A DNA stretch of 64,000 bases, taken from IMG/VR virus record IMGVR_UViG_3300011883_000001; one strand, written 5' to 3'. The stretch comes from an uncultured virus (IMG/VR IMGVR_UViG_3300011883_000001) (lineage: Duplodnaviria > Heunggongvirae > Uroviricota > Caudoviricetes > Schitoviridae). The notes under the pieces were generated by a model, which was given only the letters and a program-made list of their open reading frames with translations, ran no database searches and was not told where the DNA came from. Made by a program: the position numbers and the translations under genes. Positions 17,131 through 37,509 of the stretch are shown piece after piece (position 1 is the first letter of the stretch; every line of letters starts with the position of its first letter).

Positions 17131-18111
17131 ATGCCTCAGTATTCAAACCAAACAGAACTACCTATACCTATTGCTGTATGGCTTGCTCATGATACCTATG
17201 ACCGAGCTGAAGCAGGGTTATCAGCTACATCACTTCTTAAACCAATTAGACAGGTAATCCTTTCACAGAGAGTACCTGAAGGAGAAGGTATTGTTGATAT
17301 CAGTGGTTTAATCAAATCACGTATTGGTACAGCTATCCACGATGCCATAGAACGCTCCTGGATGCATGAGAACCTACCTCAGACATTGGCTAGTCTCAAT
17401 GTACCAGAGAAATTAATTAAGCGTGTACACGTGAATCCAGAGCAATTACCAGACGGTAAACCAAGCATTCCTATGTATCTGGAACTTAGATCTTCTAAAG
17501 AAGTTCTAGGTGTCAAAATCACAGGTAAGTTTGACTTCGTAGCTGATGGTCATCTTATGGATTTCAAAACTACAGGTACATATGCATATACATCAGGCAA
17601 TAAAGATGATGACTACATTATGCAGGGTAGTATCTATCGTTGGTTGAATCCTGAGATTGTCACGGATGAGTTTATGTCTATCTGTTTTATTTTCACAGAT
17701 TGGCAGAAGACTCGTTATCTGTCTGATCCTCGTAACTACCCAAAGTCACAAATCTTAGCTCGCCAGTTCAAGATGCATCCTGCATCTGTTGTGCAGGCAT
17801 ACGTTGAAGAACGTGTAAGACTTCTGAAGTTTTACGAAGATAAACCTGAAGCAGAACTACCTGAATGTACAGATAAAGAATTGTGGCGTAAACCAGACCA
17901 ATTCAAGTACTATAAGAACCCCCAAAAAATGACGAAAAGTACAGCTAATTTTGAGACTCTAGGTGAAGCTAATCAGCGTTATTTAGATGACGGAGCTGTA
18001 GGTGTAGTCAAGATAGTTAAAGGGGGAGTATCTGCTTGCTTGTACTGCTCTGCATATACTATGTGTACTCAAAAAGATAAATTAATTGAATCAGGTGAAT
18101 TAAAGGTATGA
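17131..18111 (+). CDS. PD-(D/E)xK Cas4-like exonuclease (N4 gp42-like)
   Basis: GTAIH, TGKFD, DFKT, QGSIY, C-terminal CLYC...C. Confidence 0.85.
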   Translation: MPQYSNQTELPIPIAVWLAHDTYDRAEAGLSATSLLKPIRQVILSQRVPEGEGIVDISGLIKSRIGTAIHDAIERSWMHENLPQTLASLNVPEKLIKRVHVNPEQLPDGKPSIPMYLELRSSKEVLGVKITGKFDFVADGHLMDFKTTGTYAYTSGNKDDDYIMQGSIYRWLNPEIVTDEFMSICFIFTDWQKTRYLSDPRNYPKSQILARQFKMHPASVVQAYVEERVRLLKFYEDKPEAELPECTDKELWRKPDQFKYYKNPQKMTKSTANFETLGEANQRYLDDGAVGVVKIVKGGVSACLYCSAYTMCTQKDKLIESGELKV

Positions 18112-20252
18112 AACCTTATGAACAAATGAAGTATCACCCAATGACGGAACAGATTGTTGACATTCTATGTGAACGATCACAAAACAAAGAGCGTATGTTC
18201 TTTCGTATTGCTTGTTCTTATTATTGGGGATTAATCACAGCGCAAATGCACAATAAGATTGTAGGCTGGGGAAGTACTCCTATCCCAGTAAACATCTATG
18301 CCATGAACCTAGCAGTATCTGGTTATGGTAAGGGTTTCTCTACAGGTCTTATTGAATCAGAAGTCATTCATAAATTTCGTCAGAACTTTATGGATAACAC
18401 GTTCCATCTTCAAGCTGAACAGAACATCAAATCAATTGCAGCGCACAAAGCACTACATAAGGGAACAACAGTAGATGACGAATTAGAACGTCTATACAAA
18501 GAGTTCAATAATGCAGGTGCCTTAATGTTCTCCTTTGATGAAGCCACATTAGCAGCTGTTAAACAGATGCGTCATAAGCTCTTATTAGGCGGAGCAGGTT
18601 CAGTTAATCTACAGGTAGACGAAGTAGGTGCTAAGCTCGTAAACCAAGAAGATGTACTAGCTGGTTTCTTAGAGCTGTACGACACAGGCAAGATGAAAGA
18701 TAAGTTGATTAAGTCTTCTGCAGACAATCAACGTGTAGAACGTATTGAAGGTCAAACTCCAGCAAATATGCTGCTCTTTGGTACACCATCTAAAGTATTA
18801 GATGGAGGACGTACACAAGAGTATCTGATGGAAATGCTAGAGATGGGTTATGCTCGCCGTTGTCACTTTGGTTATTCAACCAAGGTATCTAAAGACATGG
18901 AAACAGATGCACAAACTTTAGTACAGTTACTTACTTCTAGTAAGTCTAACCATGCACTCTCAGTAATCTCAGATCAGTTAGAACAGTTAGCTGATTTCCC
19001 TAACTTGGGTAAAGAGATTGAGATTCAACAAGATCAAGCTGTATACCTTATGGAATACAAAATTGATTGTGCTAGACGAGCTGAAACATTCAAAGACCAT
19101 GAAGCTGCTCTTAAAGCTGAAATGGAACATCGTTACTTTAAAGTACTGAAACTGGCTGGTGCTTATGCATTTCTAGATTACAGCCCTAACATTACTCAAG
19201 ATCACCTTGAGTATGCAATCCGTTTAACAGAGGATTCTGGTGAAGATTTCAAACGTCTAATGACACCAGAATACAACTATGAAAAGTTAGCAAAGTATCT
19301 GGCTGACCTTAATCAACCAGTTACCTTACCTGATCTGGAACATGACTTACCTTATTTCCGTGGCAGTAAGCAAAACAAAGATTACCTGATCGAGTATGCA
19401 ACTGCATGGGGATACAAGAATAATGTGGTATTAAAGAAAACCTTTGATAATAACATTATGTTTCTGTCTGCTGACTCTCTTGAAGAAACCAACCTAGATG
19501 AACTCATCATCAGTACATCTACGCGGTTATCTGAAGACTATGAGCCATTACGTGTTCCGTTCAAAGAACTTAACGTACTGGCAAGTAACAATCAGTATCA
19601 TTGGTGTAGTCATCATTTTAAAGGTGGTATCAGACGAGCTGAGAATGCACTACCAGCATTCAATATGTTAGTTCTGGACATTGATGGTACTCTTCCATTA
19701 ACTGTGGCTAAAGAGCTTTTAAACAAGTATCAAGCCATGTACTACACAACGAAATCACATACGGAAGAAGTAAATCGTTATCGTATTATTCTTCCTATTA
19801 ATTACGTACTTGAGCTAGATCGTGAAGATTACCGTCAGTGTATGGAAGCTGTACTGAAGACACTACCATTTGAGTGTGATCCTGCTACTGCAGATATTGC
19901 ACGTAAGTGGATGTGTAACGAAGGTGAGCTTTACGTGAACGAAGGTGAACTATTTGACATCCTTCCATTCATTCCAAACACCACACGTAATGCAGAACGT
20001 GAAGCTCAATTCCAAAGCCAAGCAGATCTAGACAATCTGGAACGTTGGGTACTGAACAATACAGGTTCAGGTAACCGTAATGATCAGATCTATAAATATG
20101 CAATGGTACTGGCAGATGCAGGTAAAGACTTGGAAGAGATTGGGAACTTGGTTCGTAATCTGAATGACAAGCTGGCTGATAAACTGACTGATGAGGAAAT
20201 CATGAGTACAGTCTTGAAGTCTGTATCTAATACAATGGCACGTAAGAAATAA
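18108..20252 (+). CDS. DNA primase (helicase-like N-terminus, AEP domain, PriCT; N4 gp43-like)
   Basis: SGYGKG, VLDIDG, TTKSH..RYR, GNRN. Confidence 0.88.
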   Translation: MKPYEQMKYHPMTEQIVDILCERSQNKERMFFRIACSYYWGLITAQMHNKIVGWGSTPIPVNIYAMNLAVSGYGKGFSTGLIESEVIHKFRQNFMDNTFHLQAEQNIKSIAAHKALHKGTTVDDELERLYKEFNNAGALMFSFDEATLAAVKQMRHKLLLGGAGSVNLQVDEVGAKLVNQEDVLAGFLELYDTGKMKDKLIKSSADNQRVERIEGQTPANMLLFGTPSKVLDGGRTQEYLMEMLEMGYARRCHFGYSTKVSKDMETDAQTLVQLLTSSKSNHALSVISDQLEQLADFPNLGKEIEIQQDQAVYLMEYKIDCARRAETFKDHEAALKAEMEHRYFKVLKLAGAYAFLDYSPNITQDHLEYAIRLTEDSGEDFKRLMTPEYNYEKLAKYLADLNQPVTLPDLEHDLPYFRGSKQNKDYLIEYATAWGYKNNVVLKKTFDNNIMFLSADSLEETNLDELIISTSTRLSEDYEPLRVPFKELNVLASNNQYHWCSHHFKGGIRRAENALPAFNMLVLDIDGTLPLTVAKELLNKYQAMYYTTKSHTEEVNRYRIILPINYVLELDREDYRQCMEAVLKTLPFECDPATADIARKWMCNEGELYVNEGELFDILPFIPNTTRNAEREAQFQSQADLDNLERWVLNNTGSGNRNDQIYKYAMVLADAGKDLEEIGNLVRNLNDKLADKLTDEEIMSTVLKSVSNTMARKK

Positions 20253-20280
20253 CAACGTTGCACGTTGTGGTGTGATCAAT

Positions 20281-20308
20281 AGAGAGTGGAAACACTCTCT
20301 TTTCCTTT
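20281..20308 (+). terminator. Hairpin/terminator
   Basis: AGAGAGTG-GAAA-CACTCTCT-TTTCCTTT. Confidence 0.7.
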
Positions 20309-20320
20309 GAAGGTAAAAAC

Positions 20321-20443
20321 ATGTTAGATAACCCAAATGATTATATGGTACTCATTGGAGGAGAATCAGGTGCAGGTAAGTCTGCTTCACTGATGAACCT
20401 TAAAGACCAACCAGGTGTACTATATTTAAATTGCGAAGCAGGT
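20321..20443 (+). CDS. Sak4-like AAA ATPase (N4 gp44-like), exon 1
   Basis: 41 codons MLDNPNDYMVLIGGESGAGKSASL...YLNCEAG containing Walker A; in-frame TAA follows immediately. Confidence 0.9.
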
Positions 20444-21406
20444 TAATTTTAGCCTGATGCTCCAGTGATGGAGACATGAGAATCTATTGAAATGCTGGAA
20501 AGCCCTTAGAGCCTACATATAACCATAAGGTGATGAACAAGCTGTAGGATTGGGTAATCAGCAGGTAAGACACTAAAGGAATCACAAACAACTTCCATAT
20601 TTATAAATGGTAGTATAAACTGAACCAGAGTTAAGATTAAGGAATGTATATGCAAGACTACATTGAAGACACTGAATCAGGTATCTACCGTATTACTCAT
20701 GATGGACGTGTATTCACACAATCCAAGCTTAAAATAGCAATCGTAGGTAAAGGTATGGAATTTACGGGACAGTTTAAAGAAATCTTAAAACCAGAAAGAG
20801 AATTAAAGTATGCATTAAATAATAGAGGTTATTACTCTGTTGGTATACGAAGAAAGACTCATATGGTTCATAGATTAGTAGCGCAAGCCTTTATACCTAA
20901 TCCTGATAATAAACCGTTTGTGAATCACAAAGACGGTAATAAACTAAACAATCATGTTGATAACTTAGAATGGTGTACATGTGCGGAGAACAACGCACAT
21001 GCTCGTGAAACTGGCTTACATGTACAAGCCAAAGGTTATACACCAAACTATCAATCAGCAGCAACTAAAGCTAAATCGTTAGCAAATCTGAAAGATAAAT
21101 CTGCATTAACAGATGATCAGGTCAGGTATGTTCGATCAGTATTTAAACCAAGAGATAAAGAGTTCAGTGCTACAGCATTGGCTAAACAATTTGGTATAAG
21201 TACAGCAGCTATGTGTAAGATTGTTTCAGGTCAGACTTACCAAGATGTAGTGTAAACCTCAACGACTATCCGAAAGGAGTAGGGGTAAGTACCCCGAAGT
21301 GGTAGACCCTGGATTACCAGGTGAAGATATAGTCTGATCTTACGTGAAAGCGTAAGCAGCTTGGATAAAGCGGGGAGAGACTAACGACCTCTCCTGAACA
21401 TAAATG
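20444..21406 (+). mobile_element. Group I self-splicing intron (IA2-like), 963 nt, with an HNH ORF in P6
   Basis: P1 CAGGU/GCCUG with U-G at the 5' splice site; P AATGCTGGAA (20491), Q AATCAGCAGG (20556), R CTCAACGACTA (21258), S AAGATATAGTCT (21324); P7.1 and P7.2 hairpins; terminal G 21406. Confidence 0.93.
20644..21255 (+). CDS. Intron-encoded HNH homing endonuclease (start possibly 20650)
   Basis: VHRLVAQAF..VNHKDGNKLNNHVDNLEW..N..H; C-terminal HTH-like segment. Confidence 0.92.
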   Translation: MYMQDYIEDTESGIYRITHDGRVFTQSKLKIAIVGKGMEFTGQFKEILKPERELKYALNNRGYYSVGIRRKTHMVHRLVAQAFIPNPDNKPFVNHKDGNKLNNHVDNLEWCTCAENNAHARETGLHVQAKGYTPNYQSAATKAKSLANLKDKSALTDDQVRYVRSVFKPRDKEFSATALAKQFGISTAAMCKIVSGQTYQDVV

Positions 21407-22021
21407 AAGAGATTACCTTTCAAACATAAGTTTGAAGCTGTCACGATTACAGACCCAAACCAAATCTATGAAGCATTCATGTATGCTGACTCAGATGACG
21501 GTAAACATATCCATACAGTTGTTATTGATACTGCATCATTCTTAATGGATATGTATGAATCCAATATCGTACTTAAAGCTCCAGACACACGTACAGCTTG
21601 GGGAGGATATGCTCAGTACTGGAAGAACTTAATGCAACAGTATGTAGCAGGTACTACCAAGAACGTTATCATCCTAACCCATATTGCTGAATACCTAGAT
21701 GAAGATACAGGTACTAAACGTATCCAAGCTCCTGTTAAAGGTGCTTTATCTCGTACAGGTATTGAAGCATTCTTCTCTGTTGTAGTGAACGCTAAGAAGG
21801 TTCCAGTAGCTACTCTGGAGAAAACTCCAAACGAATATCTACATATTACAGATGAAGATCGTGCTCAAGGCTTCAAGCATGTATTCCAAACCAAGGTTAC
21901 AGCGAAGACTACAGCAGAACGTATCCGAGGACCGTTAGGTATGTTCGGACAAGATGAAGTCTACATTGATAATGATGTACAACAACTTCTTGATATTCTG
22001 CATAAATACTATGAAGATTAA
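21407..22021 (+). CDS. Sak4-like AAA ATPase, exon 2 (spliced product 245 aa)
   Basis: KRLPF continues ...NCEAG; Walker B VVIDT; ILTH; GIEAFFS. Confidence 0.9.
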   Translation, partial: KRLPFKHKFEAVTITDPNQIYEAFMYADSDDGKHIHTVVIDTASFLMDMYESNIVLKAPDTRTAWGGYAQYWKNLMQQYVAGTTKNVIILTHIAEYLDEDTGTKRIQAPVKGALSRTGIEAFFSVVVNAKKVPVATLEKTPNEYLHITDEDRAQGFKHVFQTKVTAKTTAERIRGPLGMFGQDEVYIDNDVQQLLDILHKYYED

Positions 22022-22045
22022 GCTTTAATTTAATCTGATGGTTTT

Positions 22046-22582
22046 ATGAAAAGAAATCGTAAAGACTTTACTTGGGCAGAACTAAATGAACTGCTCAAGT
22101 ACAATCCAACAACAGGACAGTTAATTTGGAAGACGAATAAACACTCCAAGTCTATTGTTCCTGGTACTGAAGCAGGATGCATAAATAAAGCAAATGGTTA
22201 TAGAACTATTAGCTTATTTGGCTTATCCTACCCAGCTCACCACATTGCTTGGTTTATGTATCATAAGGATTGGGCAACTCACCAATTAGATCATATAAAC
22301 CAAGTACGTAGTGATAATAGAATCTCTAACTTACGTGAAGTATCCATTGCTGAGAATGCAAGAAATAGATCTCGTAGGGTAGGTACAACAACTGGTGAAC
22401 ACGGCATATGGTTTGATCGTAGACGTTACAAGTATGTAGCTGAGATCACTATGAACGGTAAACGTGTTTACCTAAAACGGTTTGACGATATTGATGAAGC
22501 AGTTGCTTCTAGAGAAGCCAAACTTAAAGAGCTAGGATTCCATGATAACCATGGATCTATTAAACAAAACACAGGAAATTAA
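22046..22582 (+). CDS. Free-standing HNH endonuclease with an AP2-like C-terminal domain
   Basis: YNPTTG, AHHIAW, LDHINQVRSDNRISNLR; KYVAEI..GKRVYL..F. Confidence 0.9.
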   Translation: MKRNRKDFTWAELNELLKYNPTTGQLIWKTNKHSKSIVPGTEAGCINKANGYRTISLFGLSYPAHHIAWFMYHKDWATHQLDHINQVRSDNRISNLREVSIAENARNRSRRVGTTTGEHGIWFDRRRYKYVAEITMNGKRVYLKRFDDIDEAVASREAKLKELGFHDNHGSIKQNTGN

Positions 22583-22586
22583 TCAA

Positions 22587-23285
22587 ATGTCATTATTCGG
22601 TAAAGGTTATTCAGACAAAGCTCAGAAACCAACAGACTTTCAAAAACGTACTTTAGATACTGATGTGTATCCAGGTATTATTAAGATGGCTTTCGTTGGT
22701 CAGTCTGCAGGTGGAGCTGCTAACGTTACCTTAGAAGTTAAACTTGATAATGGTAAAACATATAAAGAAACTATCTACGTAACTAATCGTCAAGGCTCTA
22801 ACACATACGAAAAAGATGGAAAGGAATTCTACTTACCTGGTTTCTTAACTGTAAACCAAATTGCATTATTTGCTACAGGTAAAGATCTGTTTGAACTTGA
22901 AGAAGATCTGGAAACTCGTACAGTGAAGATCTACGACTTCCAAGCAGGTAAAGAAGTAGCTCAAGATGTACAAGCTATTATTCCTCTGATTGATCAACCA
23001 GTTCTCATTGCTATTGAAGAATACGAAGATGTGAAGAAAACTAAACAAGGTAATGAGTACGTAGCTACTGGTGAAATTGCTATTCGTAACCAAATTCAGA
23101 AAGTCTACCATCCTGAAACACGTCAGACTTATGTAGAAGCGTCTGAAGAGAAAGAAGCTACTCAGCTTGATTCTTGGTTAGCAGACAACAAAGGTAAGGT
23201 ACGTAAACTGAAATCAGCTACTGAGTCAGCAAATACCAATACAGTAACTAAACCTACTTCATCTGGTTTATTTGGTAAGAAGTAA
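22587..23285 (+). CDS. Single-stranded DNA-binding protein/late activator (N4 gp45-like)
   Basis: YLPGF, VKIYDF motifs, C-terminal GLFG; synteny after gp44. Confidence 0.85.
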   Translation: MSLFGKGYSDKAQKPTDFQKRTLDTDVYPGIIKMAFVGQSAGGAANVTLEVKLDNGKTYKETIYVTNRQGSNTYEKDGKEFYLPGFLTVNQIALFATGKDLFELEEDLETRTVKIYDFQAGKEVAQDVQAIIPLIDQPVLIAIEEYEDVKKTKQGNEYVATGEIAIRNQIQKVYHPETRQTYVEASEEKEATQLDSWLADNKGKVRKLKSATESANTNTVTKPTSSGLFGKK

Positions 23286-25818: not shown

Positions 25819-28800
25819 TTAGAGCACAGATCCTAGTAACTGTACTGGGATTGGTTCACCAAGAGCATCAGGAAGAATCAGAGCACCATCACGTAAAGGG
25901 AATCCCATCTGATTCCATACAATAGGATCAATACCAAATGGGATATCTGTACCATGATGCATCACCAGAGCTTGTAGTAATGCACGTGCAGGTTTACGCT
26001 CTAACAATCTGAATAGTGCTTTCTGAATACGAAGATTATATTTCGTAAACATCACAATACCCATATCGTTAAGATACTGCATACCTTTACTTGTAGGCAT
26101 ATCATAGTTAATGAAGTTATCACTAGCCATCTTGATTGCCTTATCATGGCTTAGCTTATCCTTCGCTGTATTGGTGTAGTACTTGTACATTACATACTTA
26201 GCAGTGAAGTCTGATAGTTGTGTAGTGTTGTTCAAGAACTCATACAACGGAGTATTAGGAGAAACCATCATATACTCTGCAGTTCTGCGTAATGGTTTAG
26301 GAATCTTGTTTAACTGTTTCTCAAACTTACGTTCCAGAGCAGATTTGAAACCATAGTCATCATCAGCATTCATAGCTACATCATCTACAATGCTTGGTAG
26401 CATCCCTTCATTGATGAACTCAGATAGAGGGTTACGAGCAATAGATTGTTCTAGTCGCAGTACCTCTTGTTCCAATTCAGCTTTATTACCTACACCTGTA
26501 TACAGCATTTGACGTTTAGCTGTCAGCAATGCAGAATCCTTACGGTGTTGTAAACCAGCACGAACAGCAACAATAGAATCCTTCATGATATCTGTCAGTG
26601 AAGCACCATGAGCCTGTAACAAGAATGTATTAGACAAGATATTCATTACCAGCGTACGAACATTACGAATAACGATTATGTTCTTTGATACTGCTACAGC
26701 TTCCTGCATACCACGTTCAAAACGAGAACCATAAGTACGAGCATTGGACTGGAACAATATTTTAAACACTGTGGTGTACAGTTTCTCGTACAAGTTCTGA
26801 TCTGAACGTTCTTTATCAAATCCTTGCATCACAGAATACTTCTGGAAACCAAAGACAGGTAACAGTACATCTTTAGGAACATACAACTTACGTTCACCCA
26901 TCTGAGACTGAATATAATCACGAGTCTCTTTAGGGAGTAAGTCCCACATCTTACGTAGCTCAGGATCACTAGACTTATGACTTACCTCTAAATACTTACG
27001 AGGATTCTTGTCATGGTTTGTATTGTATTCCTGGACCAGAGCATCTACGACTAGCTTGTTTGTTTCAGGTACAGTCATCTTGTTGAAGTTAGTAGCAGAG
27101 TACAAACCAATTAGTTCAGAGAAGTCATTATTACGTTGTAGTAATACATCACGAGAAGCTCCAGACATCTCATAAGAGAAACCAGAGATATTACCTTCCA
27201 GATCATACTGAGGGATTAATGCAGAAGCCTCAGCATCTTTGAAAGGATCGTAAGCAGTATCCTTATAAGCAGATTGTTTAGTTTGAATACTTGGCAGGAT
27301 TTGCTGAACTGCTACTTTTACTGGAGTACCTTTAGGATTCTTACTTACCAGTTCTAATGCACCAGATACTAGTCTGGTTTGACCTGCATCTTCAGATAAG
27401 AACATACGTACTGTTTGTCCTTGAACCAAGGTATTAGGTTCTAGAGATTTCACTTCACGGAAATACTGATTCTTCAGTTTAAGAGCTTCTTCCTCAGTAG
27501 TAGCAAACTTGATCTCATGATGTGGATTAGTAATCTCAGGTACAAAACCTTTGGTTACTGAAAGAGGATTCTCTTTGAATAACTCATCACGTGCTTCAGA
27601 AGCTAGACCTGCATGGAACTTCAGTAAAGTATCAATACCGTTGATATCTCCTGATACTTCCTCAGCCATTACTTCCTTGATCAACTCTTTCTCTTTAGCA
27701 GGTGTGTATTGGATTGCATACAAAGAAACCAATTGATCTACAAGTTCAACTACCTGGGTATTTACCTTGTCTTGAGGGATCTTATGCTTTGTTCCTGCGT
27801 GCATAGCAATCAAGGTAGCATTCTTAGCTAGGTCATTATTCTTAGCACCTAAACCAGTTATCATATAACGAGCTAGATCTTCACTACGTCCGATTAGGAC
27901 ATGAGCATTTACATCCAAACCTTTCAATTGAGTTTCAATTGTTTTGATTTTAGCTCGTAAGAATGTAGGGGTGTTATAAGCATTCTGGATTTCTTGTACA
28001 GACATGAAACCAAGAAGACTCTGTACATCTGCTTTCATTACATAACTCAAAGCTTCTTTTTGTGGACGAGTTAAATCCTTACCTCCATTCTTGAAAGTAC
28101 TCAAAATATTCTTAATGGTTTGCTCTTTAAGCTGTTCTTTGGTTTGAGACTGTAGCTTCACATGACGCATCAGCTTTTCAATCACATCCTTGAACGGAGA
28201 ATTCTCTGCAATCTCATTAACCAGTTCACCCCAGAAACCAAGCTTACCTGTACGAGACATGAATAACTCTTTACCGTTATCCAGACGGTTCATTAAGTTA
28301 CCTCGTGCAGCTTCAGCTGTGATATCTGCAGCAAGACCTACATATGCATTCTTACTATCACTAAGTTTAGAGTCATCAATTTTCTCAGCTAGTTTATTAC
28401 GACCTGCTTTGATCTTCTCATCAACATAGTTATCAGCTTTAGCTAACTGTTCTTCAATCTTATTGGTAATGAAGTTACGGTGTTTGAGATCTACCTTCGC
28501 TAGATTCTTCACAACAGATTGAGTACGTTCACCTAGCTTCTGATTAGCCTTAGCACCAACAAACATTAAACCAATGTTCTCAAGAGCCTGGTTAATGAAC
28601 TGAACAAGCTGTTCATACATATTGTTTGGTTTAGACTGGTCCTTCTCAGGACGTACATTCACTGTATTGAATACAGATTCATTACCTAGAACCATACTAG
28701 TAAAACGAGCCAGATGATCACCATTGGCTGTAATCTTAAACAGGTAATTCCATTTAGCTTGAGCTGCTTGCTGTTCCTGTGGAGTAGCTGTAGACCAGTC

Positions 28801-31800
28801 ACCCTCATGGAATGCTTGAGGTTTAATCTGACTTCGTGCTTGTGTGAATGTCTTGTTTAACTCTGCATAGCTTAGAGATAAGTTACGATCATCATTAGCT
28901 CCTTGAGTAGCTGCATACAATAACTCAGTCACATAACGCTCACGCTCAGAGAAACTGAAACCATGAAGTACAGCTTCATCTGTGGTTGTGGTTTGATTAT
29001 GTGCAATAGCATCTGCCCATACAGATTCAGGATCTGAACTTAAACCAATAGAACTAAGTAAAGCATTATCCATACGATCTAAGATAGGTAGTGCAAACGA
29101 GTTCAAAACAGACTGTAAGTTAGAGTCAAAGTTAGTACCTGTACCATTGAGGTTCTGAAGAATCTCATTGGCATTCATACGTTTTACTTTGTCTGTAGCA
29201 TGTTTACGTGGAGCACCTAGTTCAGTACTAGCAGGTTGAATTAAACCAGCATAATCAGCAGTACTGTCATAGTTCTTAGTTAAAGCAACAGTATGAATCA
29301 TCAGAGCTTCTAAACCAGTGACTTCACCTTTAGCTAATTTAGCTGATGGCTTACCAAAGAAATTATTGAACAGGTTAGCTATGCTTTGCAGGAATGCTCC
29401 TAATCCCCAGGTACGTTTAGCTTTTACATGCATCTGGTTTATCAGACGAGCTACTTCTGGTTCAGAGAACACAGTAGCAATGAACTCATCTAAGCTAGAT
29501 ACAGCATATGCATTATCACCCTCTAACTTACCTTGATTAGATAGGAACTTCTTAAACTGACTACGTAAAGCTTCTAGTTCTTGAACTGCAGCTTTAGACT
29601 TAGGATTCTGTAAAGCAGTATGTGTAGCAGCATGTAGTAATTCATGAAGCACAATAGCAGGATCAAACTTACCATCTTGAGGAAGCAAGTAGATTACTGG
29701 CTTACCATTTTCATTTGTATTGATCCATCCATAACGACCTTTACGGAATTGCTCAATAGCTTTAGGAGAACTTGCATTTGCAATCTTAATTTCAAGTTGA
29801 TCAGGTAAAGCTTTCTTTACCAGGTTAAACATCTGACCTGAAAGTAGAGTACCTAAGTTACCTGAACTACGAGCTTGGTTTGTATCGTAAGCTAACGCAG
29901 AGAATAGAATGTTTTTATTTACTTCACCTTCTACATTGTTCAAGTAGAAATCTGCAGTATGCATATCTACATTAGACTGGATACGTTCCTGTACTTGTTT
30001 CTCAATTGGTTTAGATTCTTCAGCTACTCCTTGAGCTTCTAAACCAAGTACCTTATCTACAAGAGCAGCTTGTCCAAGTAATTCAGAAATCTTCTCTTTG
30101 CGTTGAGTCTCCAGTTGAGCAATACGATCAGTAATCTGTTTGTAATCACCTTCGGTAAACTGATACTCACCACCTTCAATACCATACTGGTTAAGGTACT
30201 TATAATCAGATAGAGAAATAAGTTTATTAATATCACGGTCATAAGCACTATTAAGTAACTTAAGAACCACATCGGAGAATGAAGCATTAACACCTAGTTT
30301 CTCTGCTAAACCATCAAGAGATTTAGTGAGAGTTTCTTTATTAGATTCAGTTAAGTTCTCGTCAATAGCGTAACGTTGAAGAGGCTTTAACGCACCTAAA
30401 GCAAAGTTCACGTTTAAGTCTGTATTAACCAAACTGTCTAGAGTTACTTGGTTTAATGATTTACCTAATTCACGTCCTTGACCCATCTTGGCATTCAATG
30501 CGTCATGGATGTTCATGGTTGCAAACTTACCTAGGTTAGCATGTGCAATATAAGCATCCTGAGAGTGAATAGCCATTGGTGTATTACGTACACCTGGAGC
30601 TTCAATTCCAACAGACTTTGTACCTTGTTCAATATGTGAAGTAGCTGATTCTTTAGGAGCAGCATTATTCACTGTACCATTAGGATTCAGATTACGAGTC
30701 TGTGTCTTACGAGAACCGAAGATATATAAGTCATTCATGTTATGAGGATCTTTATTCAGTCGTTTAAATGACTTGAACATTGGAATAGCAGACTCTTCAG
30801 TATTACTACTCTTAAGACCCATAGCTGTAGGGTAGCTAGGCATAACAGGACGTAACTCAATATGTAGCTGATCTAGCTGTTGTTTACTAATTCCTTCAAC
30901 AGATTTGTCTTCTACATCTTCTAAAGCTACTTGGATAGCATCCTCGTAGATTGGATTAAACAACTCATAACCAAAGTTAGCCAAAGCTGTTTTTTCATCA
31001 CGAGCTTGAACATACTCTGGATAAGCTTGAACAGTGAACTCATCTACAATAGTTTTAAGTGTTGACTGTAGACCAGTTAAAAAAGCTTTCTCCTGTTCGT
31101 AAGTAAATACTAGATCTTTAGGATTTGTCTCTAGACTTACTAGATCACCTTTGAAACCAGAGAGTTTAAGCAGACGGTTTAAGGATTGGATAACTGTCTT
31201 ATGTTCTACAGAGTTTGGTTCTACTTTTTCAAGCAAACCAATTACAGAATCTAAAACATCTCCTGCTACACCTTGAGCTGTAGATCGTCCACCTGCAGCA
31301 AAGTTAATTACTGTGGTTAAAGTCTTAGCACCTTTACGTTCACTAAACTTAGGGTGAAGAATCTTTAATTCAGTAACAACTGCTTTAATTTTCTCAGCAT
31401 CCTTACGTTCAGTATTTTTTGCTACATCAGTGAGAACTCGATCTAGAATCTTGGCATTGTGCTCATACATATCATCAGCCCCAGTATCTTTGTGCTGAGG
31501 AACAGTAGTGATACCGTCTGATTCTTTGTATAAACCACCAGCACCAGCAAGAGCAGGATTCAATGTATTCAACATTACCTGGGTTAAGAATGGACCGTTG
31601 GTTACACCATCAATCTCAATAGAAATATCAGAAGTAAACTTGGTTTCACCTGCTTGAAATGCATCACGGAATCTAGTCATATTTACTAGAGCTTTCAATG
31701 ACATTGCATTCATACCCATCTTGTCTACAGTATCAGCAATACGCTGTACATCCTTCTCTGTGAAGTCCTTACCATTTAGAACCTTAGACATAGAAGCCAA

Positions 31801-34800
31801 TACAGGTACACCATCACCTTTCAACATCCATTCAAGATACTGAGGAGCATAGTTTAAGATCTGTGTTTTATCAGCAGTTGTCTTAACGTTACCTGGCTCT
31901 AGATCCTCACTGTTTAACGCTACAGCTTGAATAAACTCACCTAGCTGAGTTACACCATTCTCGTTGATAAACAAGCTAGTATCACCATTTATAGCTGCTA
32001 CGATGGATGCTTTATCAATAGATACATCAACGATATGTTCTTTCAGGGAAACCATACCACGATGTAGCTTAGAAGCTACTGGGTTAACTGCGTTTACCAT
32101 ACCTGAACGTTGCTGTACCCATACCTCCTGTTGAAGATAGAAGTCACGAGCTAAACCATGTTTAGTAGTATTCAATAGATCTACTGCTTCTTCGTAAGCA
32201 CGGATATCACGATCAATAGCCTGGTTATTAGATTCAATACCTTCACGCTTCATAGCCTGTTTAGCTAAGAGAGCATCTCCAGTAACCTTGCCATACATAC
32301 GACCTAACAGTTCAGGGTAAGCTTGCAAAGCTGTATGTACTGAATGCATTCCAGTACTCACATTCCATTTTAACTGATGAGCATGTTCTAGAGCTTTCAC
32401 CTGAAACTCTGGTACTTGTGTACCTACAGCATCAATCGTTTTTTGAGTAACCAACTCTTTAGGTTTATTAATCTGGATTGGAGTATTCCACTGAGGTAAA
32501 CCAAAGACCTTACTGATTACACTCTTTGATCCACGTACAGCAGATAAAACCTTAGCTGAATTCTTGATAGGTTCAAACTTATTGTTGGTAGGGAGTTTCA
32601 CGAAAGTAAGACGTTTAGGAATCTCACGTGAACCTTCGTAGTCAATCTCAGCTTGTTCATTCGCAGCTACAATTGCCTGTGTGTATGATTCAATTAAGTT
32701 AGTACCTAAGACTACTTCTTGTAGATATTCATCACGAATGAGCATGTGTGTAGCAATATGACCTAGAGCTACAGCCAGTTTCTCTTTACGGGAAGCAGCT
32801 ACATCAGATGCAAACTGATAACCTAGAACTTGTACAGCTTTAGTACCCATAGACTGTGCAGCGTTGTTCTTGTATGTACCTACATCTTTCATACCATTGT
32901 AGACATGGGTAGGAATCTTGAAGGCATCAGTAAAGAACAGTTTCTTAGCTACATCTTCTTTAGAGGATAGCGTTGAACCATTCTCTGTAATCCAAGAGAA
33001 AGCAGATACAGTAATAGCATCCATCACATGAGGATCTAAGTAACCTACTTCATGCTTACCTTGTGTCTTGGTTTCAGTTACCAAGTATTTAGCAAAGTTC
33101 TTAAAGTCAGGAACAGATTCAGCATATCCATTCAATAGAACACCTGTATTCTGTTTACCAAATAAGAAGAACATTCGTGCTAATTCTTTAACTGCTTCAA
33201 CTTGTTGAGGTTCTAGTTCAGTACCTAACTTGTCAGCTGCTTCTTTAAGAAGTACTGCTTCAATCTCAGGAAGCTTCTTACCAGCAAACTCAGTGGTATA
33301 AGCGATACGGCGTGTACCTACAATAGTAGGTTTCACAGTAACAGCATCTTTAACCAAATTACGTTCAGCTAATGGCTTCTCACGTTCAATCTTACGCTGT
33401 GCTTCAAGCTCAGCATTAATTTCACTAATCTCACCAAAGGTAGAATCATATTCTTTGGTTGTATCCATATCACTGAATAGATCACTCAGTTCCTGATCTG
33501 TAATCTCTAAATCAGATGTTGAATATTCAAGATCATTTACAACCTCTTCTACTTTAGGTTCCGGAGAAGCTTCAATAACTTCTGTCTTGGTTTGCTGTGT
33601 ACGAGGTTGTTGCAGCTCAGCTACGGTATCTGAGATTTCAAGGATACGATCAAACATAGTTTGAGCTTCACCCGTTAAACCAAAGAACTTAGAGAACAAT
33701 CCTTTTAGTTTGTCATAGACAGTCGTATTACCTATAGAGATTTGCTTGAGCTGTTTGATTACTGGTTTCTCAGTTAAACCAACAGTGAAGATCTCAGCTG
33801 CGTTATCAACCATGTAGCTTAGACGTTCACGTACATGAGGATCTATATCAGCATTTGCAAGAAGGAAGTTCTTAATATCTTCTTGGATAGCTAAGATCTC
33901 TGCCTTGATTGGTACATATTTATCTTCTGGTTCATCTACCATTACTTTAGTACTGATAACGTGTCCTGAAGCCATATGACCAATTTCATGCAGCAAGATA
34001 TCTTCTGCAGTAACACCAGGATATTGTTCAACTAGTTTTTCTAAGTTGGAAACTACAATTGTATTCTTACCATAGAATGCACGTGCATCTACTGAAGCTA
34101 CATTTTTAGCTAGGTCTTTATCCTTTAACTTAGATGCATCATTGGTAAAAATGATCTTAGTACTTGGATTATATTCCAAGAAAATCTCAGCAAGTTTTTT
34201 ATAGCCTTGGGATGGAGCATTACTAAATAACTTATCTAAAACAGCTTTAGCTGTATAAACGGTTTCTGGTTTGAATCCATAGATAGAATCAGACTGTTGG
34301 GATTCTTTATTCCAAATACCATTACCATTATTTTCAACATAACCTTTACTTGTAAGATATGTAGCTACTTCACGTTCACCAATATTAAAAGTACGATTAC
34401 GATCAGATACCTTATCAGTAATTAAAGTTGCACCTGCAGAAATAGCTTTATCAATTTCAGCGAAGTCAGGTTTAACACGTCCAGCACGATTACCATTTAC
34501 ACTGATAAATACAACATCATCTTTTGAATAATCACCTGTATTAGCTTTACTTCTAAAGTCTTTAGCATACTGTTCTGTAGATGATCCTTTAGATCCTTTA
34601 CCAATAAACTTAGTAGCTTTATCTGCTTTAATTTGATCTTTAGCTAAGTAAGCTGATTTACCAGAAAGAATTATTTTTGTTTCTTCTTTCTTGTGTTGTG
34701 ATGGTTGATTTCCTGATTTAGCTTCCACGTTGGTACTTGAGTCTTTGGTAGATTTAGACTGAGTAGTTTTAGCTGCAGGCTTGGAAACAGTTTGAACAGT

Positions 34801-37509
34801 AGTTTTTGAATCATCTAGACCTTCCCATATATTTTCATCTGGATTAACTGGAGTATTCTTTGGAGTTTGTTTAGCTTTGCTTTGAACTTGTTGACGTTGC
34901 TGAGTCTGACCTTGCTCTGCTTGTTCTTGAGCAGTCTTCAGATCATTCTGAGGATTCAAGGAATCCATGGCTTGTTGCATACGATCAGCTGTAGGTTGGA
35001 TATCAGCACGATCTGTCTGAGCTAGAATGGTATCTACAGTAGCTTTTACTTTAGCAATCAGTTTAGCTTCCTGTTGGATAGCAGCTACAATATTAGTAGA
35101 GTCATTCTTCTGACCTGGAGCATAAGTAACATCTAAAGCAGCATTCTTGGTTTTAGCTTTACCTGTTAATGGTTCACCTTCATTGATTACCCACTTACCT
35201 TGCTCATTACGAATAACCTGTACAGTACCTCCAATAGATGTAGCCATCTCATAAGCTTGCTGTACTGCTTCAGCTTTTAAACCATGTGAATTGGCAAAGC
35301 GTGTAATGCCACGTAGAGCTAAACGTTGAGCATTAGTATCACCACGGACTACTGCATCACCAGCATCGTCTATATAGCTCATAACAGCTTTAGATTGGGC
35401 AGAACCATCAAGGATATCTTTAGATACCTTATCAATGGTTTGACTTAAATCATATTCCTGACGAGCTTCTGTGAGCGCACGAAGTACTTCTTTATCAGCA
35501 GATGAATAAGTAGTTGCGTTAGCTGCAGCTGTAAGTTCTTCAGTAGAGAATGTAGAAGGAGCAGATAAGATAGTAGAAGGGATAGCTGTAGGATTAACAT
35601 CAGAGGTATCTTTTAATACCTTGGATTTAGCCAGAGCATCTTTAGCAGCATTAAGATGTTTGTCATCATCTTCATACTTCTTACGAATAGCTGCTTCATC
35701 CATACTAGACATTAGTTGATCACGTGCAGTATAGACAGCATTCAGACGATCCAGTTCTACTTGATTTTCCTGGATAGCAGCTTGATCTCCTGCTTGGGTT
35801 GCAGCAGCTAATTCAGATTCAACCTGGGCTTTGTATTCATCATACTCAGTCTGATTGTCTAGAAGATCTACAACAAGCTCCATGGTTTCTTGAGAAGCAG
35901 AAAGCTTATCAACCATCTCTTGATAATTTACTTTGATCTCTTCGATCTTCGCTTGTGCTTGTTCAGGTTCTTTAATCTCTTCTACAGCTTTAGCAGCTTC
36001 CTGTGTCATACGTACAGTAGCAGCTTCAGCATTGAACTTAGGAGATTCAGGATTAGCTAATTCCTGTGTAGAAGTATTCTTGTCTAATTCTGGATTAGTC
36101 TTGATTGCTTCTTCAGTAGCTTTAGAAATAGCTTTAGCTTTAGCTTGTAAACCAGTACCTACAACTGCTTGACCTACTGCAGCTGGACCACCTAATGCAC
36201 CACCAATAGCGGCACCCATTACAGCAGCTTCACCCATACCTTGAGCATCAAGTGTAGGATCTAAGCTACCCCATTTAGATTCAATCTGTTGTTGGATTGC
36301 TTCTGTACCACCTTCAACTGCAGCTATTCCTGCAAGTCTAGAGAATGCCATACGTGCAGCAGATTTCTCTGCAGCTGTACCAACCTTGCTTGCTAAGCCA
36401 AGTGACTTACCTACACCTGCTCCTTTGATAGCTCCTTTAGCTACTACAGCTTCTGCATAGTTAGCAGCTGTGTATGCAGCAGTCATTCCTAGGATTCCTA
36501 GAGACTCTCCAGCAGTAGGTGTTCGTAATTCACGATCAGTAAATTGATCATGAGATTGGTTTTGAATACGTGCAGCATCAATAGCCAATGCAGGAGCAAT
36601 AGTATATGGATTGATATATGGAGCCATTGCAGCTGTTTCTTCAATCAGATAAGCAGGATTAGCTGCTAAACCTTTAGCCGTATCTTTAGCTGAATTCAAG
36701 AATGCTTTACCTTGGTTCTTAGCCCAAGTTAAATAATCACCTTGATCATAGGCATCCTGAGCATCACGTACTAACTTTTGGTTTTCTTTATCTGAAGTAC
36801 CATTCCAAGCTTTGTGACCTTGGTAAGCTTTCTCTGCAGAATGATCATACCAGTTACGTGCATTGAGATAACCAGCCTCTCCTTTCTGACGATTACCTGC
36901 CAGATATTCACCAAATCCTGCTACATGATCAGACCAGTTAAGACGTTGCTTTGCATATGTCTCTGAACCATCTTCATTGTAGAGAAGTTTATATTCATCT
37001 TGGCTTAGCTGATTGTCTTGTAAACGTTTACCTAAGAATGTCATACGCTCTTGCACATCACGCATATCCAGGTATTTACCTGAGTTCAGTGCAGCTTGAG
37101 GATTAGTACGTAATTGGTCTAGCTCTTGTTGATATTCAGCATTTCTCTTTTGATCTTGTAATTTAATGAATGCAGTTTGTGCAGCATCATCTACACCTTG
37201 ACGGTTAAGTGCAGCAACACCAGCTACAGTAGAACCTACAGCTTGTTCAGCTAATTCACCAAACGCTCCTGCAATTCTACGAGGTACGTTAACAGCTGCT
37301 TCAGTAAAACCATTCTCATTGAATTGAGCTGAGTAACGGTTATGTAAGTCAGTAGCTCCACTGTAATCATTTTGATATTGGTAGTTAGGTTGTCCTGTAG
37401 CTTTGGTGTAGTTGGATTGACCGTATGGAGTTACCGTTGTCTTTTGCTGTAGATTATTAGCAATCCGAGCAAAGGCATTAGCAACTTCATTATCTTTGTA
37501 TCCTGCCAT
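25819..37509 (-). CDS. Virion-encapsidated RNA polymerase (N4 gp50-like), 3896 aa
   Basis: Size; no Cys seen on reading; motif A EIDGVTNG, motif B RKGAK, motif C NIHDA; C-terminal DFTAKY..FINYD. Confidence 0.96.
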   Translation of the reverse strand: MAGYKDNEVANAFARIANNLQQKTTVTPYGQSNYTKATGQPNYQYQNDYSGATDLHNRYSAQFNENGFTEAAVNVPRRIAGAFGELAEQAVGSTVAGVAALNRQGVDDAAQTAFIKLQDQKRNAEYQQELDQLRTNPQAALNSGKYLDMRDVQERMTFLGKRLQDNQLSQDEYKLLYNEDGSETYAKQRLNWSDHVAGFGEYLAGNRQKGEAGYLNARNWYDHSAEKAYQGHKAWNGTSDKENQKLVRDAQDAYDQGDYLTWAKNQGKAFLNSAKDTAKGLAANPAYLIEETAAMAPYINPYTIAPALAIDAARIQNQSHDQFTDRELRTPTAGESLGILGMTAAYTAANYAEAVVAKGAIKGAGVGKSLGLASKVGTAAEKSAARMAFSRLAGIAAVEGGTEAIQQQIESKWGSLDPTLDAQGMGEAAVMGAAIGGALGGPAAVGQAVVGTGLQAKAKAISKATEEAIKTNPELDKNTSTQELANPESPKFNAEAATVRMTQEAAKAVEEIKEPEQAQAKIEEIKVNYQEMVDKLSASQETMELVVDLLDNQTEYDEYKAQVESELAAATQAGDQAAIQENQVELDRLNAVYTARDQLMSSMDEAAIRKKYEDDDKHLNAAKDALAKSKVLKDTSDVNPTAIPSTILSAPSTFSTEELTAAANATTYSSADKEVLRALTEARQEYDLSQTIDKVSKDILDGSAQSKAVMSYIDDAGDAVVRGDTNAQRLALRGITRFANSHGLKAEAVQQAYEMATSIGGTVQVIRNEQGKWVINEGEPLTGKAKTKNAALDVTYAPGQKNDSTNIVAAIQQEAKLIAKVKATVDTILAQTDRADIQPTADRMQQAMDSLNPQNDLKTAQEQAEQGQTQQRQQVQSKAKQTPKNTPVNPDENIWEGLDDSKTTVQTVSKPAAKTTQSKSTKDSSTNVEAKSGNQPSQHKKEETKIILSGKSAYLAKDQIKADKATKFIGKGSKGSSTEQYAKDFRSKANTGDYSKDDVVFISVNGNRAGRVKPDFAEIDKAISAGATLITDKVSDRNRTFNIGEREVATYLTSKGYVENNGNGIWNKESQQSDSIYGFKPETVYTAKAVLDKLFSNAPSQGYKKLAEIFLEYNPSTKIIFTNDASKLKDKDLAKNVASVDARAFYGKNTIVVSNLEKLVEQYPGVTAEDILLHEIGHMASGHVISTKVMVDEPEDKYVPIKAEILAIQEDIKNFLLANADIDPHVRERLSYMVDNAAEIFTVGLTEKPVIKQLKQISIGNTTVYDKLKGLFSKFFGLTGEAQTMFDRILEISDTVAELQQPRTQQTKTEVIEASPEPKVEEVVNDLEYSTSDLEITDQELSDLFSDMDTTKEYDSTFGEISEINAELEAQRKIEREKPLAERNLVKDAVTVKPTIVGTRRIAYTTEFAGKKLPEIEAVLLKEAADKLGTELEPQQVEAVKELARMFFLFGKQNTGVLLNGYAESVPDFKNFAKYLVTETKTQGKHEVGYLDPHVMDAITVSAFSWITENGSTLSSKEDVAKKLFFTDAFKIPTHVYNGMKDVGTYKNNAAQSMGTKAVQVLGYQFASDVAASRKEKLAVALGHIATHMLIRDEYLQEVVLGTNLIESYTQAIVAANEQAEIDYEGSREIPKRLTFVKLPTNNKFEPIKNSAKVLSAVRGSKSVISKVFGLPQWNTPIQINKPKELVTQKTIDAVGTQVPEFQVKALEHAHQLKWNVSTGMHSVHTALQAYPELLGRMYGKVTGDALLAKQAMKREGIESNNQAIDRDIRAYEEAVDLLNTTKHGLARDFYLQQEVWVQQRSGMVNAVNPVASKLHRGMVSLKEHIVDVSIDKASIVAAINGDTSLFINENGVTQLGEFIQAVALNSEDLEPGNVKTTADKTQILNYAPQYLEWMLKGDGVPVLASMSKVLNGKDFTEKDVQRIADTVDKMGMNAMSLKALVNMTRFRDAFQAGETKFTSDISIEIDGVTNGPFLTQVMLNTLNPALAGAGGLYKESDGITTVPQHKDTGADDMYEHNAKILDRVLTDVAKNTERKDAEKIKAVVTELKILHPKFSERKGAKTLTTVINFAAGGRSTAQGVAGDVLDSVIGLLEKVEPNSVEHKTVIQSLNRLLKLSGFKGDLVSLETNPKDLVFTYEQEKAFLTGLQSTLKTIVDEFTVQAYPEYVQARDEKTALANFGYELFNPIYEDAIQVALEDVEDKSVEGISKQQLDQLHIELRPVMPSYPTAMGLKSSNTEESAIPMFKSFKRLNKDPHNMNDLYIFGSRKTQTRNLNPNGTVNNAAPKESATSHIEQGTKSVGIEAPGVRNTPMAIHSQDAYIAHANLGKFATMNIHDALNAKMGQGRELGKSLNQVTLDSLVNTDLNVNFALGALKPLQRYAIDENLTESNKETLTKSLDGLAEKLGVNASFSDVVLKLLNSAYDRDINKLISLSDYKYLNQYGIEGGEYQFTEGDYKQITDRIAQLETQRKEKISELLGQAALVDKVLGLEAQGVAEESKPIEKQVQERIQSNVDMHTADFYLNNVEGEVNKNILFSALAYDTNQARSSGNLGTLLSGQMFNLVKKALPDQLEIKIANASSPKAIEQFRKGRYGWINTNENGKPVIYLLPQDGKFDPAIVLHELLHAATHTALQNPKSKAAVQELEALRSQFKKFLSNQGKLEGDNAYAVSSLDEFIATVFSEPEVARLINQMHVKAKRTWGLGAFLQSIANLFNNFFGKPSAKLAKGEVTGLEALMIHTVALTKNYDSTADYAGLIQPASTELGAPRKHATDKVKRMNANEILQNLNGTGTNFDSNLQSVLNSFALPILDRMDNALLSSIGLSSDPESVWADAIAHNQTTTTDEAVLHGFSFSERERYVTELLYAATQGANDDRNLSLSYAELNKTFTQARSQIKPQAFHEGDWSTATPQEQQAAQAKWNYLFKITANGDHLARFTSMVLGNESVFNTVNVRPEKDQSKPNNMYEQLVQFINQALENIGLMFVGAKANQKLGERTQSVVKNLAKVDLKHRNFITNKIEEQLAKADNYVDEKIKAGRNKLAEKIDDSKLSDSKNAYVGLAADITAEAARGNLMNRLDNGKELFMSRTGKLGFWGELVNEIAENSPFKDVIEKLMRHVKLQSQTKEQLKEQTIKNILSTFKNGGKDLTRPQKEALSYVMKADVQSLLGFMSVQEIQNAYNTPTFLRAKIKTIETQLKGLDVNAHVLIGRSEDLARYMITGLGAKNNDLAKNATLIAMHAGTKHKIPQDKVNTQVVELVDQLVSLYAIQYTPAKEKELIKEVMAEEVSGDINGIDTLLKFHAGLASEARDELFKENPLSVTKGFVPEITNPHHEIKFATTEEEALKLKNQYFREVKSLEPNTLVQGQTVRMFLSEDAGQTRLVSGALELVSKNPKGTPVKVAVQQILPSIQTKQSAYKDTAYDPFKDAEASALIPQYDLEGNISGFSYEMSGASRDVLLQRNNDFSELIGLYSATNFNKMTVPETNKLVVDALVQEYNTNHDKNPRKYLEVSHKSSDPELRKMWDLLPKETRDYIQSQMGERKLYVPKDVLLPVFGFQKYSVMQGFDKERSDQNLYEKLYTTVFKILFQSNARTYGSRFERGMQEAVAVSKNIIVIRNVRTLVMNILSNTFLLQAHGASLTDIMKDSIVAVRAGLQHRKDSALLTAKRQMLYTGVGNKAELEQEVLRLEQSIARNPLSEFINEGMLPSIVDDVAMNADDDYGFKSALERKFEKQLNKIPKPLRRTAEYMMVSPNTPLYEFLNNTTQLSDFTAKYVMYKYYTNTAKDKLSHDKAIKMASDNFINYDMPTSKGMQYLNDMGIVMFTKYNLRIQKALFRLLERKPARALLQALVMHHGTDIPFGIDPIVWNQMGFPLRDGALILPDALGEPIPVQLLGSVL

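Follow-up and report, generated by a model that had tools for sequence, protein, structure and literature searches.

A probable group I intron in a Sak4-like ATPase gene

The stretch of DNA analyzed here (64,000 nucleotides (nt) of the uncultured virus IMGVR_UViG_3300011883_000001; hereafter, the window) comprises most of the genome of an N4-like (Schitoviridae-type) phage. In this genome, the gene for a Sak4-like ATPase of the N4 gp44 type is, in all likelihood, split behind codon 41, where a mobile group I intron that encloses an HNH homing endonuclease gene is inserted, and splicing would yield an ATPase of 245 amino acids (aa). The insert, at positions 20444..21406 of the plus strand (963 nt), starts with UAA and ends with AAAUG; it was delineated through partial matches to Rfam, an intron-less allele, and homologous introns at the same site. 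The observations on which this assignment draws are the anatomy of the intron, the conservation and covariation of its helices, an exact presence/absence polymorphism in DNA, and an intact endonuclease open reading frame (ORF); by these signs, the insert is real and well-formed as a group I intron, mobile, and probably active.

The ORF finder splits this locus into three, namely, a 41-aa ORF (20321-20446), a 203-aa HNH ORF (20644-21255), and a 205-aa ORF (21404-22021), of which the first and the last are the two ends of one AAA_24 protein (PHROG 124, 'Sak4-like'). Exon 1 (20321..20443, plus strand; 41 codons) contains the Walker A motif GESGAGKS and ends with NCEAG. Being a fragment, it covers only positions 2-33 of the Pfam AAA_24 profile, with a score of 18.9 bits that lies below the cut-off; it matches PHROG 124 with E 9.1e-8 and can be aligned to the N-termini of uninterrupted homologs. 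Exon 2 (21407..22021, plus strand; 204 codons plus the stop codon) starts with KRLPF and matches profile positions 54-170 of AAA_24 with 30.3 bits (cut-off, 27) and PHROG 124 with E 2.2e-28. The AAA_24 domain, together with the synteny described below, assigns the split gene to the predicted Sak4-like, N4 gp44-like ATPases.

The stop codon TAA (20444-20446) directly follows exon 1, and the last base of the intron, G21406, is the G of the ATG at 21404 that opens the 205-aa ORF. When 20443 is joined computationally to 21407, the reading frame is kept and a 245-aa product results; this product aligns without gaps to the uninterrupted proteins of phage XC38 (gp24), phage At2, and Erwinia phage S6 (gp073). 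The motif LYLNCEAGK(K/R)LPF runs continuously over the junction in S6 and in the Acinetobacter phages XC38 and At2. Two features characteristic of group I introns are present, namely, a 5' splice site that follows a U paired with a G in the P1 guide helix, and a terminal G at an exon junction that, in the computed product, restores the frame.

Intron-less alleles and uninterrupted homologs

DNA contigs from runs X1, X3, and X4, which belong to three studies, carry an allele in which position 20443 is joined to 21411 with four letters in between, that is, an allele that lacks exactly 20444-21406 and keeps the reading frame. The flanks of this allele are 97-99% identical to the window; in the X1 contig (2,407 bases), the flanks show 9 differences in 641 positions and 35 in 1056. 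The four letters read AAAC, against AAGA at 21407-21410 of the window, and both of these changes are synonymous, so that K and R are kept. Among the differences listed for the X1 contig (135 further ones lie beyond those listed), the nearest others lie some 40 bases off on either side, at 20401 and 21445. The change from one tetranucleotide to the other could be a scar of co-conversion, an adaptation of P10, or a variant of the endonuclease target. The presence and absence of an insert at one exact site among close relatives is the mark of a mobile intron, and intron-plus and intron-less forms are found in other lineages, too (P0005 versus P0007).

The gene is uninterrupted in most of its homologs. 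Among the IMG/VR relatives listed, the nearest ones (66% identity) are uninterrupted. A homolog of exon 2 is present in 469 deposited phage records. The first 100 residues of an uninterrupted homolog, used as an N-terminal query, are found in one place in 442 of the 443 deposited phage records that they match, and all 60 displayed rows of the 443 are single pieces; in the remaining record, less than 80% of the query is covered in one place, and 26 deposited records are matched by exon 2 but not by the N-terminal query. A survey of the junction itself extended to 82 IMG/VR loci, made up of the 80 best among 555 relatives and two further loci, and 77 of these are uninterrupted, 75 being contiguous and 2 one codon shorter. 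The other five loci contain inserts near the junction, three of them at the exact site of the insert in the window.

Introns at the same and neighboring sites

The three exact-site inserts (L007, 301 nt; L039, 359 nt; L054, 986 nt) all lie between GGU and AAG, and each has a T at position -1 and ends with a G. Their cores are 68-78% identical to that of the intron in the window at the nucleotide level and form the same helices, whereas the host genes are merely 50-60% identical. L054 carries an HNH gene in the P6 loop, as the window does, with 74.5% identity between the proteins; L007 and L039, unlike the window, lack an ORF, and in these ORF-less homologs the P6 strands enclose a short hairpin alone. 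Both ORF-less inserts score above the gathering threshold of the Rfam group I intron model RF00028 (50 bits), with 81.8 bits for L007 and 94.8 bits for L039. No published description of the same-site introns in L007, L039, and L054 was found in literature searches. The site is recurrent in uncultivated viral contigs.

In a further contig, from run X3, position 20571 is followed by 14 other letters and then by 21252; this contig has lower identity to the window and appears to be a related intron core in which a short hairpin replaces the HNH gene in the P6 loop. Traces of introns at this site are also found in protein databases: of the 120 top-ranking database proteins, P0005 (a cluster of 68 member sequences; 203 aa) and P0070 (211 aa) start exactly at the junction, and the N-terminus of P0070 is the read-through of the 3' end of a related intron. 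These exon-2-only proteins are apparent gene-calling artifacts of same-site introns.

Another related group I intron, of 986 nt, is inserted 3 nt upstream of the site in the window, between NCEN and NKK (L035:2012-2997; L038 is identical). It shares its P4, R, and S motifs with the intron in the window and has a GAAA-capped P9 and an HNH protein that is 73.6% identical to that in the window. This intron lacks P2, and its guide has become GUUCUC, which pairs with GAGAAU, the exon bases at the shifted position. In six intron-less loci, the encoded residues are NCENN and, past the site in the window, KK, which is consistent with the splice product of the L035/L038 intron.

Structure of the ribozyme core and covariation

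The two halves of the predicted ribozyme lie at the ends of the insert, on the plus strand, and are separated by the P6 loop. The 5' half (20439..20566) consists of P1, including the exon bases 20439-43, P2, the 5' strand of P3, P4, P5, P5a, and the 5' strand of P6, and its pairing is conserved or compensated across four introns. P1 pairs CAGGU (20439-43) with GCCUG (20452-56) and includes the U-G wobble; it is followed by P2 (20460-64/20469-73), with a GUGA loop, P4 (20493-98/20558-63), P5 (20502-05/20552-55), and P5a (20512-17/20543-48). P3 (20483-89/21300-06) and P6 (20564-66/21256-58) connect the two halves. The P6 loop (20567..21255) contains the endonuclease gene, with the stop codon TAA (21253-55) abutting the 3' strand of P6. 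The 3' half (21256..21406) comprises the 3' strand of P6, P7 (21264-68/21330-34; its 3' strand is P7'), P7.1 (21269-71/21276-78), with a GAAA loop, P7.2 (21282-86/21291-95), the 3' strand of P3, P8 (21308-12/21317-21), P9 (21339-45/21350-56), with another GAAA loop, P9.1 (21359-62/21368-71), P9.2 (21374-79/21389-94), and the terminal G21406.

P7.1 and P7.2 are extra hairpins that separate P7 from the 3' strand of P3, as in subgroup IA, and both are conserved, P7.2 with compensatory changes. We take the intron to be of this subgroup (phage IA2-like), with P7.1/P7.2 as the defining feature. In searches with RF00028, the 3' core (21174-21356) scores 29.2 bits (E 3e-5) when 1.2 kb is searched and 27 bits (E 0.0076) when the whole window is searched, and the P4-P6 part (20493-20595) scores 12.8 bits (E 2.7).

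Four same-site introns (those of the window, L007, L039, and L054) were aligned with MAFFT. Over 52 pairs in P3, P4, P5, P5a, P6, P7, P7.1, P7.2, P9, and P9.2, only 2 of the 208 cells are unpaired, and compensatory changes are found in P3, P5a, P6, P7.2, P9, and P9.2; the row of the window is paired at all 67 listed positions. P1, P2, and P8 were misaligned by MAFFT and were examined as separate hairpins; each folds as a hairpin in all four introns, with a GNRA loop on P2 in every case. The guide sequence tracks the exon, with the pair at position -4 being A-U, A-U, G-C, and C-G across the four introns. When the 3' halves of five introns were compared over 34 pairs, 95.8% of the cells were paired, against 37.0-50.6% in the slid-partner control, 19 of the 34 pairs had changed on both sides, and none of 500 shuffles reached any of the observed covariation measures. 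The structure was derived from the sequence of the window, which gives it an advantage over the slid controls; neither the magnitude of the effect nor the occurrence of two-sided changes depends on this advantage. The core helices P3-P9, with the P, Q, R, and S elements, are thus backed by covariation.

An earlier note on this DNA, made from the letters and the translated ORFs, had proposed that a group I intron with an HNH gene splits the Sak4-like gene, and the intron-less allele, the same-site introns, the covariation, and the gap-free alignment bear this out. The details hold as well: exon 1 ends at T20443, paired with the G in P1 (CAGGU/GCCUG); the P, Q, R, and S elements, P7.1, P7.2, P8, and P9 all lie where the note had put them; G21406 is the G of the ATG that the ORF finder took as a start, at 21404; and NCEAG and KRLPF are joined in frame in a computed 245-aa product that matches uninterrupted homologs without gaps. 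Of the checks that the note had suggested, a search with a group I covariance model succeeded in part, with both halves matching RF00028 at scores below the 50-bit gathering threshold, and the search for intron-less homologs found them in 77 of 82 IMG/VR loci and 442 of 443 deposited records, so that the homologs are not naturally two genes.

The endonuclease gene in the P6 loop

The P6 loop harbors an intact gene for an I-HmuI-like HNH homing endonuclease (20650..21255, plus strand; about 201 aa) that lies wholly inside the loop. The product matches Pfam HNH_3 with 36.6 bits (cut-off, 24.8), PHROG 59 with E 3.3e-46, and, over residues 42-119, the structure of I-HmuI (PDB 1u3e) with E 2.6e-8; the catalytic His and Asn are kept in the latter alignment (HKDGNK..NN....N). 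The ORF finder places the start at ATG 20644 (203 aa, 612 nt). Most likely, translation would start at ATG 20650, because AAGGA lies 6 nt upstream of it and because, in L054 and L035, the homologous ORF begins at the corresponding position.

Pairwise identities among the HNH proteins encoded in the window, L054, and L035 are 68-75%. The one in the window is 74.5% identical to that of L054 and 73.6% identical to that of L035, whereas the host gene products show 50.6% and 52.3% identity, respectively. The endonucleases are more alike than the host genes, which fits lateral spread of the element. Most likely, this I-HmuI-like endonuclease would nick or cut intron-less alleles and thereby drive homing.

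Splicing, homing, and alternative explanations

Splicing, the activity of the endonuclease, and its target are predictions from sequence. The gene and the intron would be transcribed as one RNA, in which the intron would fold into the P1-P9 core, with P7.1/P7.2 as in phage IA-type introns. The guide would pair with the last five bases of exon 1, placing U20443 opposite G20452; an external guanosine would then attack after U20443, and the freed exon 1 would attack after G21406, joining GGU to AAG in one 245-aa frame. Unspliced RNA would yield the 41-aa peptide alone, because UAA directly follows the 5' splice site. In a mixed infection, the HNH product would nick or cut intron-less alleles near the site, and the intron would be copied in during repair (homing).

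Several points weigh against an active group I intron. P6 of the window is just 3 bp long, and the candidate P10 (AAGA with UUUU at 20447-50), read by eye, is weak. The two separate matches to RF00028 (29.2 and 12.8 bits) fall short of the gathering score, and a default scan of the whole window at this threshold gave no RF00028 match. The low score is explained by the 612-nt ORF in P6, which divides the match to the model, and the doubt that Rfam leaves as to the group I nature of the insert is removed by the comparative evidence, that is, the intron-less allele, the same-site introns, and the covariation. None of the 16 public runs listed with this sequence is recorded as RNA, and spliced RNA is unseen. 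In addition, according to a preprint on G7C-like N4 phages (10.1101/542787), reverse transcription PCR detected splicing of one intron, and an intron-like insertion in the DNA polymerase gene was unspliced, with the gene expressed as two polypeptides. Given this unspliced insert, intron anatomy alone is no proof of splicing.

In one alternative reading, the insert descends from a group I intron but splices poorly or has ceased to splice, such that the ATPase is made in two pieces or is lost. It would be favored by the lack of RNA among the 16 runs, by the G7C-like precedent, and by the in-frame ATG 21404 at the extreme end of the intron. Yet all core helices are intact, without an unpaired position among the 67 listed for the window, the 5' splice site retains its U-G pair and the intron its terminal G, and no Shine-Dalgarno-like run was seen by eye within 20 nt upstream of ATG 21404. 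Furthermore, a 41-aa Walker A peptide and a 205-aa remainder are unlikely to make up a working enzyme, and elsewhere the gene is conserved as a single gene. We consider loss of splicing improbable, while leaving it a small chance because splicing is predicted rather than seen and because the outcomes reported for the G7C-like phages were mixed.

Far less probable still, with next to no chance of being correct, is that two natural genes flank a free-standing HNH gene and that the RNA structure arose by chance. Free-standing HNH genes are common in N4-like phages, according to PMC3670811, and there is one just downstream, at 22046-22582. At the sequence level, this explanation is nevertheless refuted by the near-identical allele with exact loss of 963 nt, the ORF-less inserts at the same site that score above the Rfam threshold, and the covariation (19 of 34 pairs, with none of the 500 shuffles as high); the continuity of 77 of the 82 loci and 442 of the 443 deposited records over the junction also argues against it. 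An intein, or another in-frame protein insertion, would account for an interrupted conserved ATPase motif and for nothing else. The reading frames rule it out entirely: TAA 20444-46 directly follows exon 1, and the HNH ORF begins about 200 nt downstream with its own ribosome-binding site.

Relation to known phage introns

The gp44/Sak4-like gene is not new as an intron host. In Escherichia phage vB_EcoP_PhAPEC7 (KF562340.1), also of the Schitoviridae, the N4 gp44 homolog, a member of the same gene family as the split gene in the window, is annotated as a joined coding sequence (CDS) with an ORF 'encoded in putative intron', and vB_EcoP_PW8 (PQ362703.1) has the same layout. Like the intron in the window, the PhAPEC7 insert (about 790 nt) contains group I R and S motifs and an endonuclease ORF. 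However, it lies after the residue aligned to about residue 104-105 of the window product, some 63 codons downstream, and PhAPEC7 is continuous at the insertion site in the window. Only two short core motifs, of 27 and 15 nt, match the intron in the window, and the ORF gives no significant blastp match to the HNH protein there. We therefore rejected the possibility that the PhAPEC7 intron is the same element, given that the site, the core, and the ORF all differ. The earlier suggestion of a new insertion site thus stands in part: the site is unoccupied in deposited phages and, on sequence comparison, is new among those alone, whereas an intron in gp44 was already annotated in PhAPEC7 and the site itself recurs in 3 of the 82 IMG/VR loci. 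No publication on an intron in a Sak4-like/gp44 gene was found in the literature on Sak4 or on Schitoviridae introns.

The introns in the td, nrdB, and sunY genes of phage T4 are group I introns of subgroup IA2. They interrupt genes of DNA metabolism, contain P7.1 and P7.2 and an endonuclease ORF that is looped out of a peripheral helix, and run into a stop codon shortly past the 5' splice site. By these features, the T4 introns and the one in the window are alike in layout, and they differ in host genes and phage family. The intron within the gene for DNA polymerase of Bacillus phage SPO1 encodes I-HmuI, the enzyme that the window ORF matches with conservation of HKDGNK...N. The overall similarity is low, and the intron and the host gene are different; nicking by the window protein is a prediction from this match. 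Among deposited phages, those of the Felixounavirus type (for example, Escherichia phage JH2) provide the best nucleotide matches to the intron in the window, in the form of group I introns that contain HNH genes. The identity is about 76% across the region of the HNH motif and across the 3' core, with 17-21% of the intron covered, and their host gene differs from that in the window. In phage JohannRWettstein, the features under the match are the large subunit of anaerobic nucleotide reductase and a putative homing endonuclease.

Other introns have been described in N4-like phages. Vibrio phage pVa5 has a group I intron with an HNH gene in td (PMC5746245), and group I introns are suspected in the gp24, DNA polymerase, and gp43 homologs of Vibrio phages JA1 and VchO139-I (PMC3670811). 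Compared by description, these introns resemble the one in the window in their N4-like phages and HNH genes and differ from it in host genes.

Host gene and genomic context

The 205-aa product in the window is encoded on a contig of 75,311 bases. Megablast of 20250-22100 against deposited phages yielded no matches, and the phage lacks close relatives in culture; the nearest cultured-phage protein to exon 2 is that of Acinetobacter phage XC38 (58% identity). The window encodes a family A DNA polymerase, a ribonucleotide reductase, ThyX, an SU10-type portal, and a primase-like protein (PriCT_1; 18108-20252), the gene of which is the upstream neighbor of the split gene. The gene order of primase-like, Sak4-like, and HNH genes is the same as in XC38. 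The place of the SSB gene is taken from the annotation of XC38, and the window ORF 22542-23285 has no Pfam family. A search of PDB with the uninterrupted homolog P0002 returned nothing significant (best, 0.019 for parvalbumin; RadA, 0.27), and accordingly we do not claim the Glu of NCEAG as a catalytic glutamate.

Directly after the Sak4-like gene, a free-standing HNH gene (22046-22582) overlaps the next ORF (22542-23285). Its product matches HNH_3 with 42.4 bits, AP2 weakly, and PHROG 99, and is weakly similar to the product of the ORF inside the PW8 intron (E 1.8e-5; 28% over 71 aa). HNH genes are found at the matching place in the Acinetobacter phages XC38 (gp23) and At2. Between the primase-like gene and exon 1, at 20281-20307, there is an 8-bp GC-poor hairpin (AGAGAGUG / CACUCUCU) with a GAAA loop, followed by a U-rich run, which looks like a terminator.

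Elsewhere in the window, an ORF at 393-893, adjoining the helicase and DNA polymerase genes, matches the Nmad5 domain ('nucleotide modification associated domain 5'; E 3.3e-13), a possible hint that the DNA bases of this phage are modified. A minus-strand ORF of 3,896 aa (25819-37509) is without a match in Pfam at E 1e-5; by its size and place, we take it to be the virion RNA polymerase typical of N4-like phages. A permissive Rfam scan of the window found no further introns beyond 20444-21406, and no interruption is apparent in the ORFs for the polymerase, ribonucleotide reductase, ThyX, and helicase.

Implications

For annotation, the 41-aa fragment, the HNH gene, and the 205-aa AAA_24 ORF become one joined 245-aa CDS with an intron feature, and protein clusters such as P0005 need to be corrected in the same way. 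The element is of an ordinary kind and leaves the general knowledge of group I introns unchanged; it adds a second, and possibly a third, insertion site in the gp44/Sak4-like gene of N4-like phages. The natural intron-plus, intron-less, and ORF-less forms could be used for experiments on homing and co-conversion.

Because the L035/L038 intron lies only 3 nt upstream and two synonymous changes directly abut the empty site, we also propose, as a conjecture that is rather unlikely to hold, that the NCE(A/S)GK motif of gp44-type ATPases is a hot spot at which one lineage of introns with HNH genes is retargeted. The pattern of two changes at the empty site could have been left by co-conversion, or it could mark a variant of the target that evades the endonuclease. 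If this proposal is true, these alleles would constitute a natural system in which to follow shifts in the insertion sites of an intron and its endonuclease and the escape of phages from homing.

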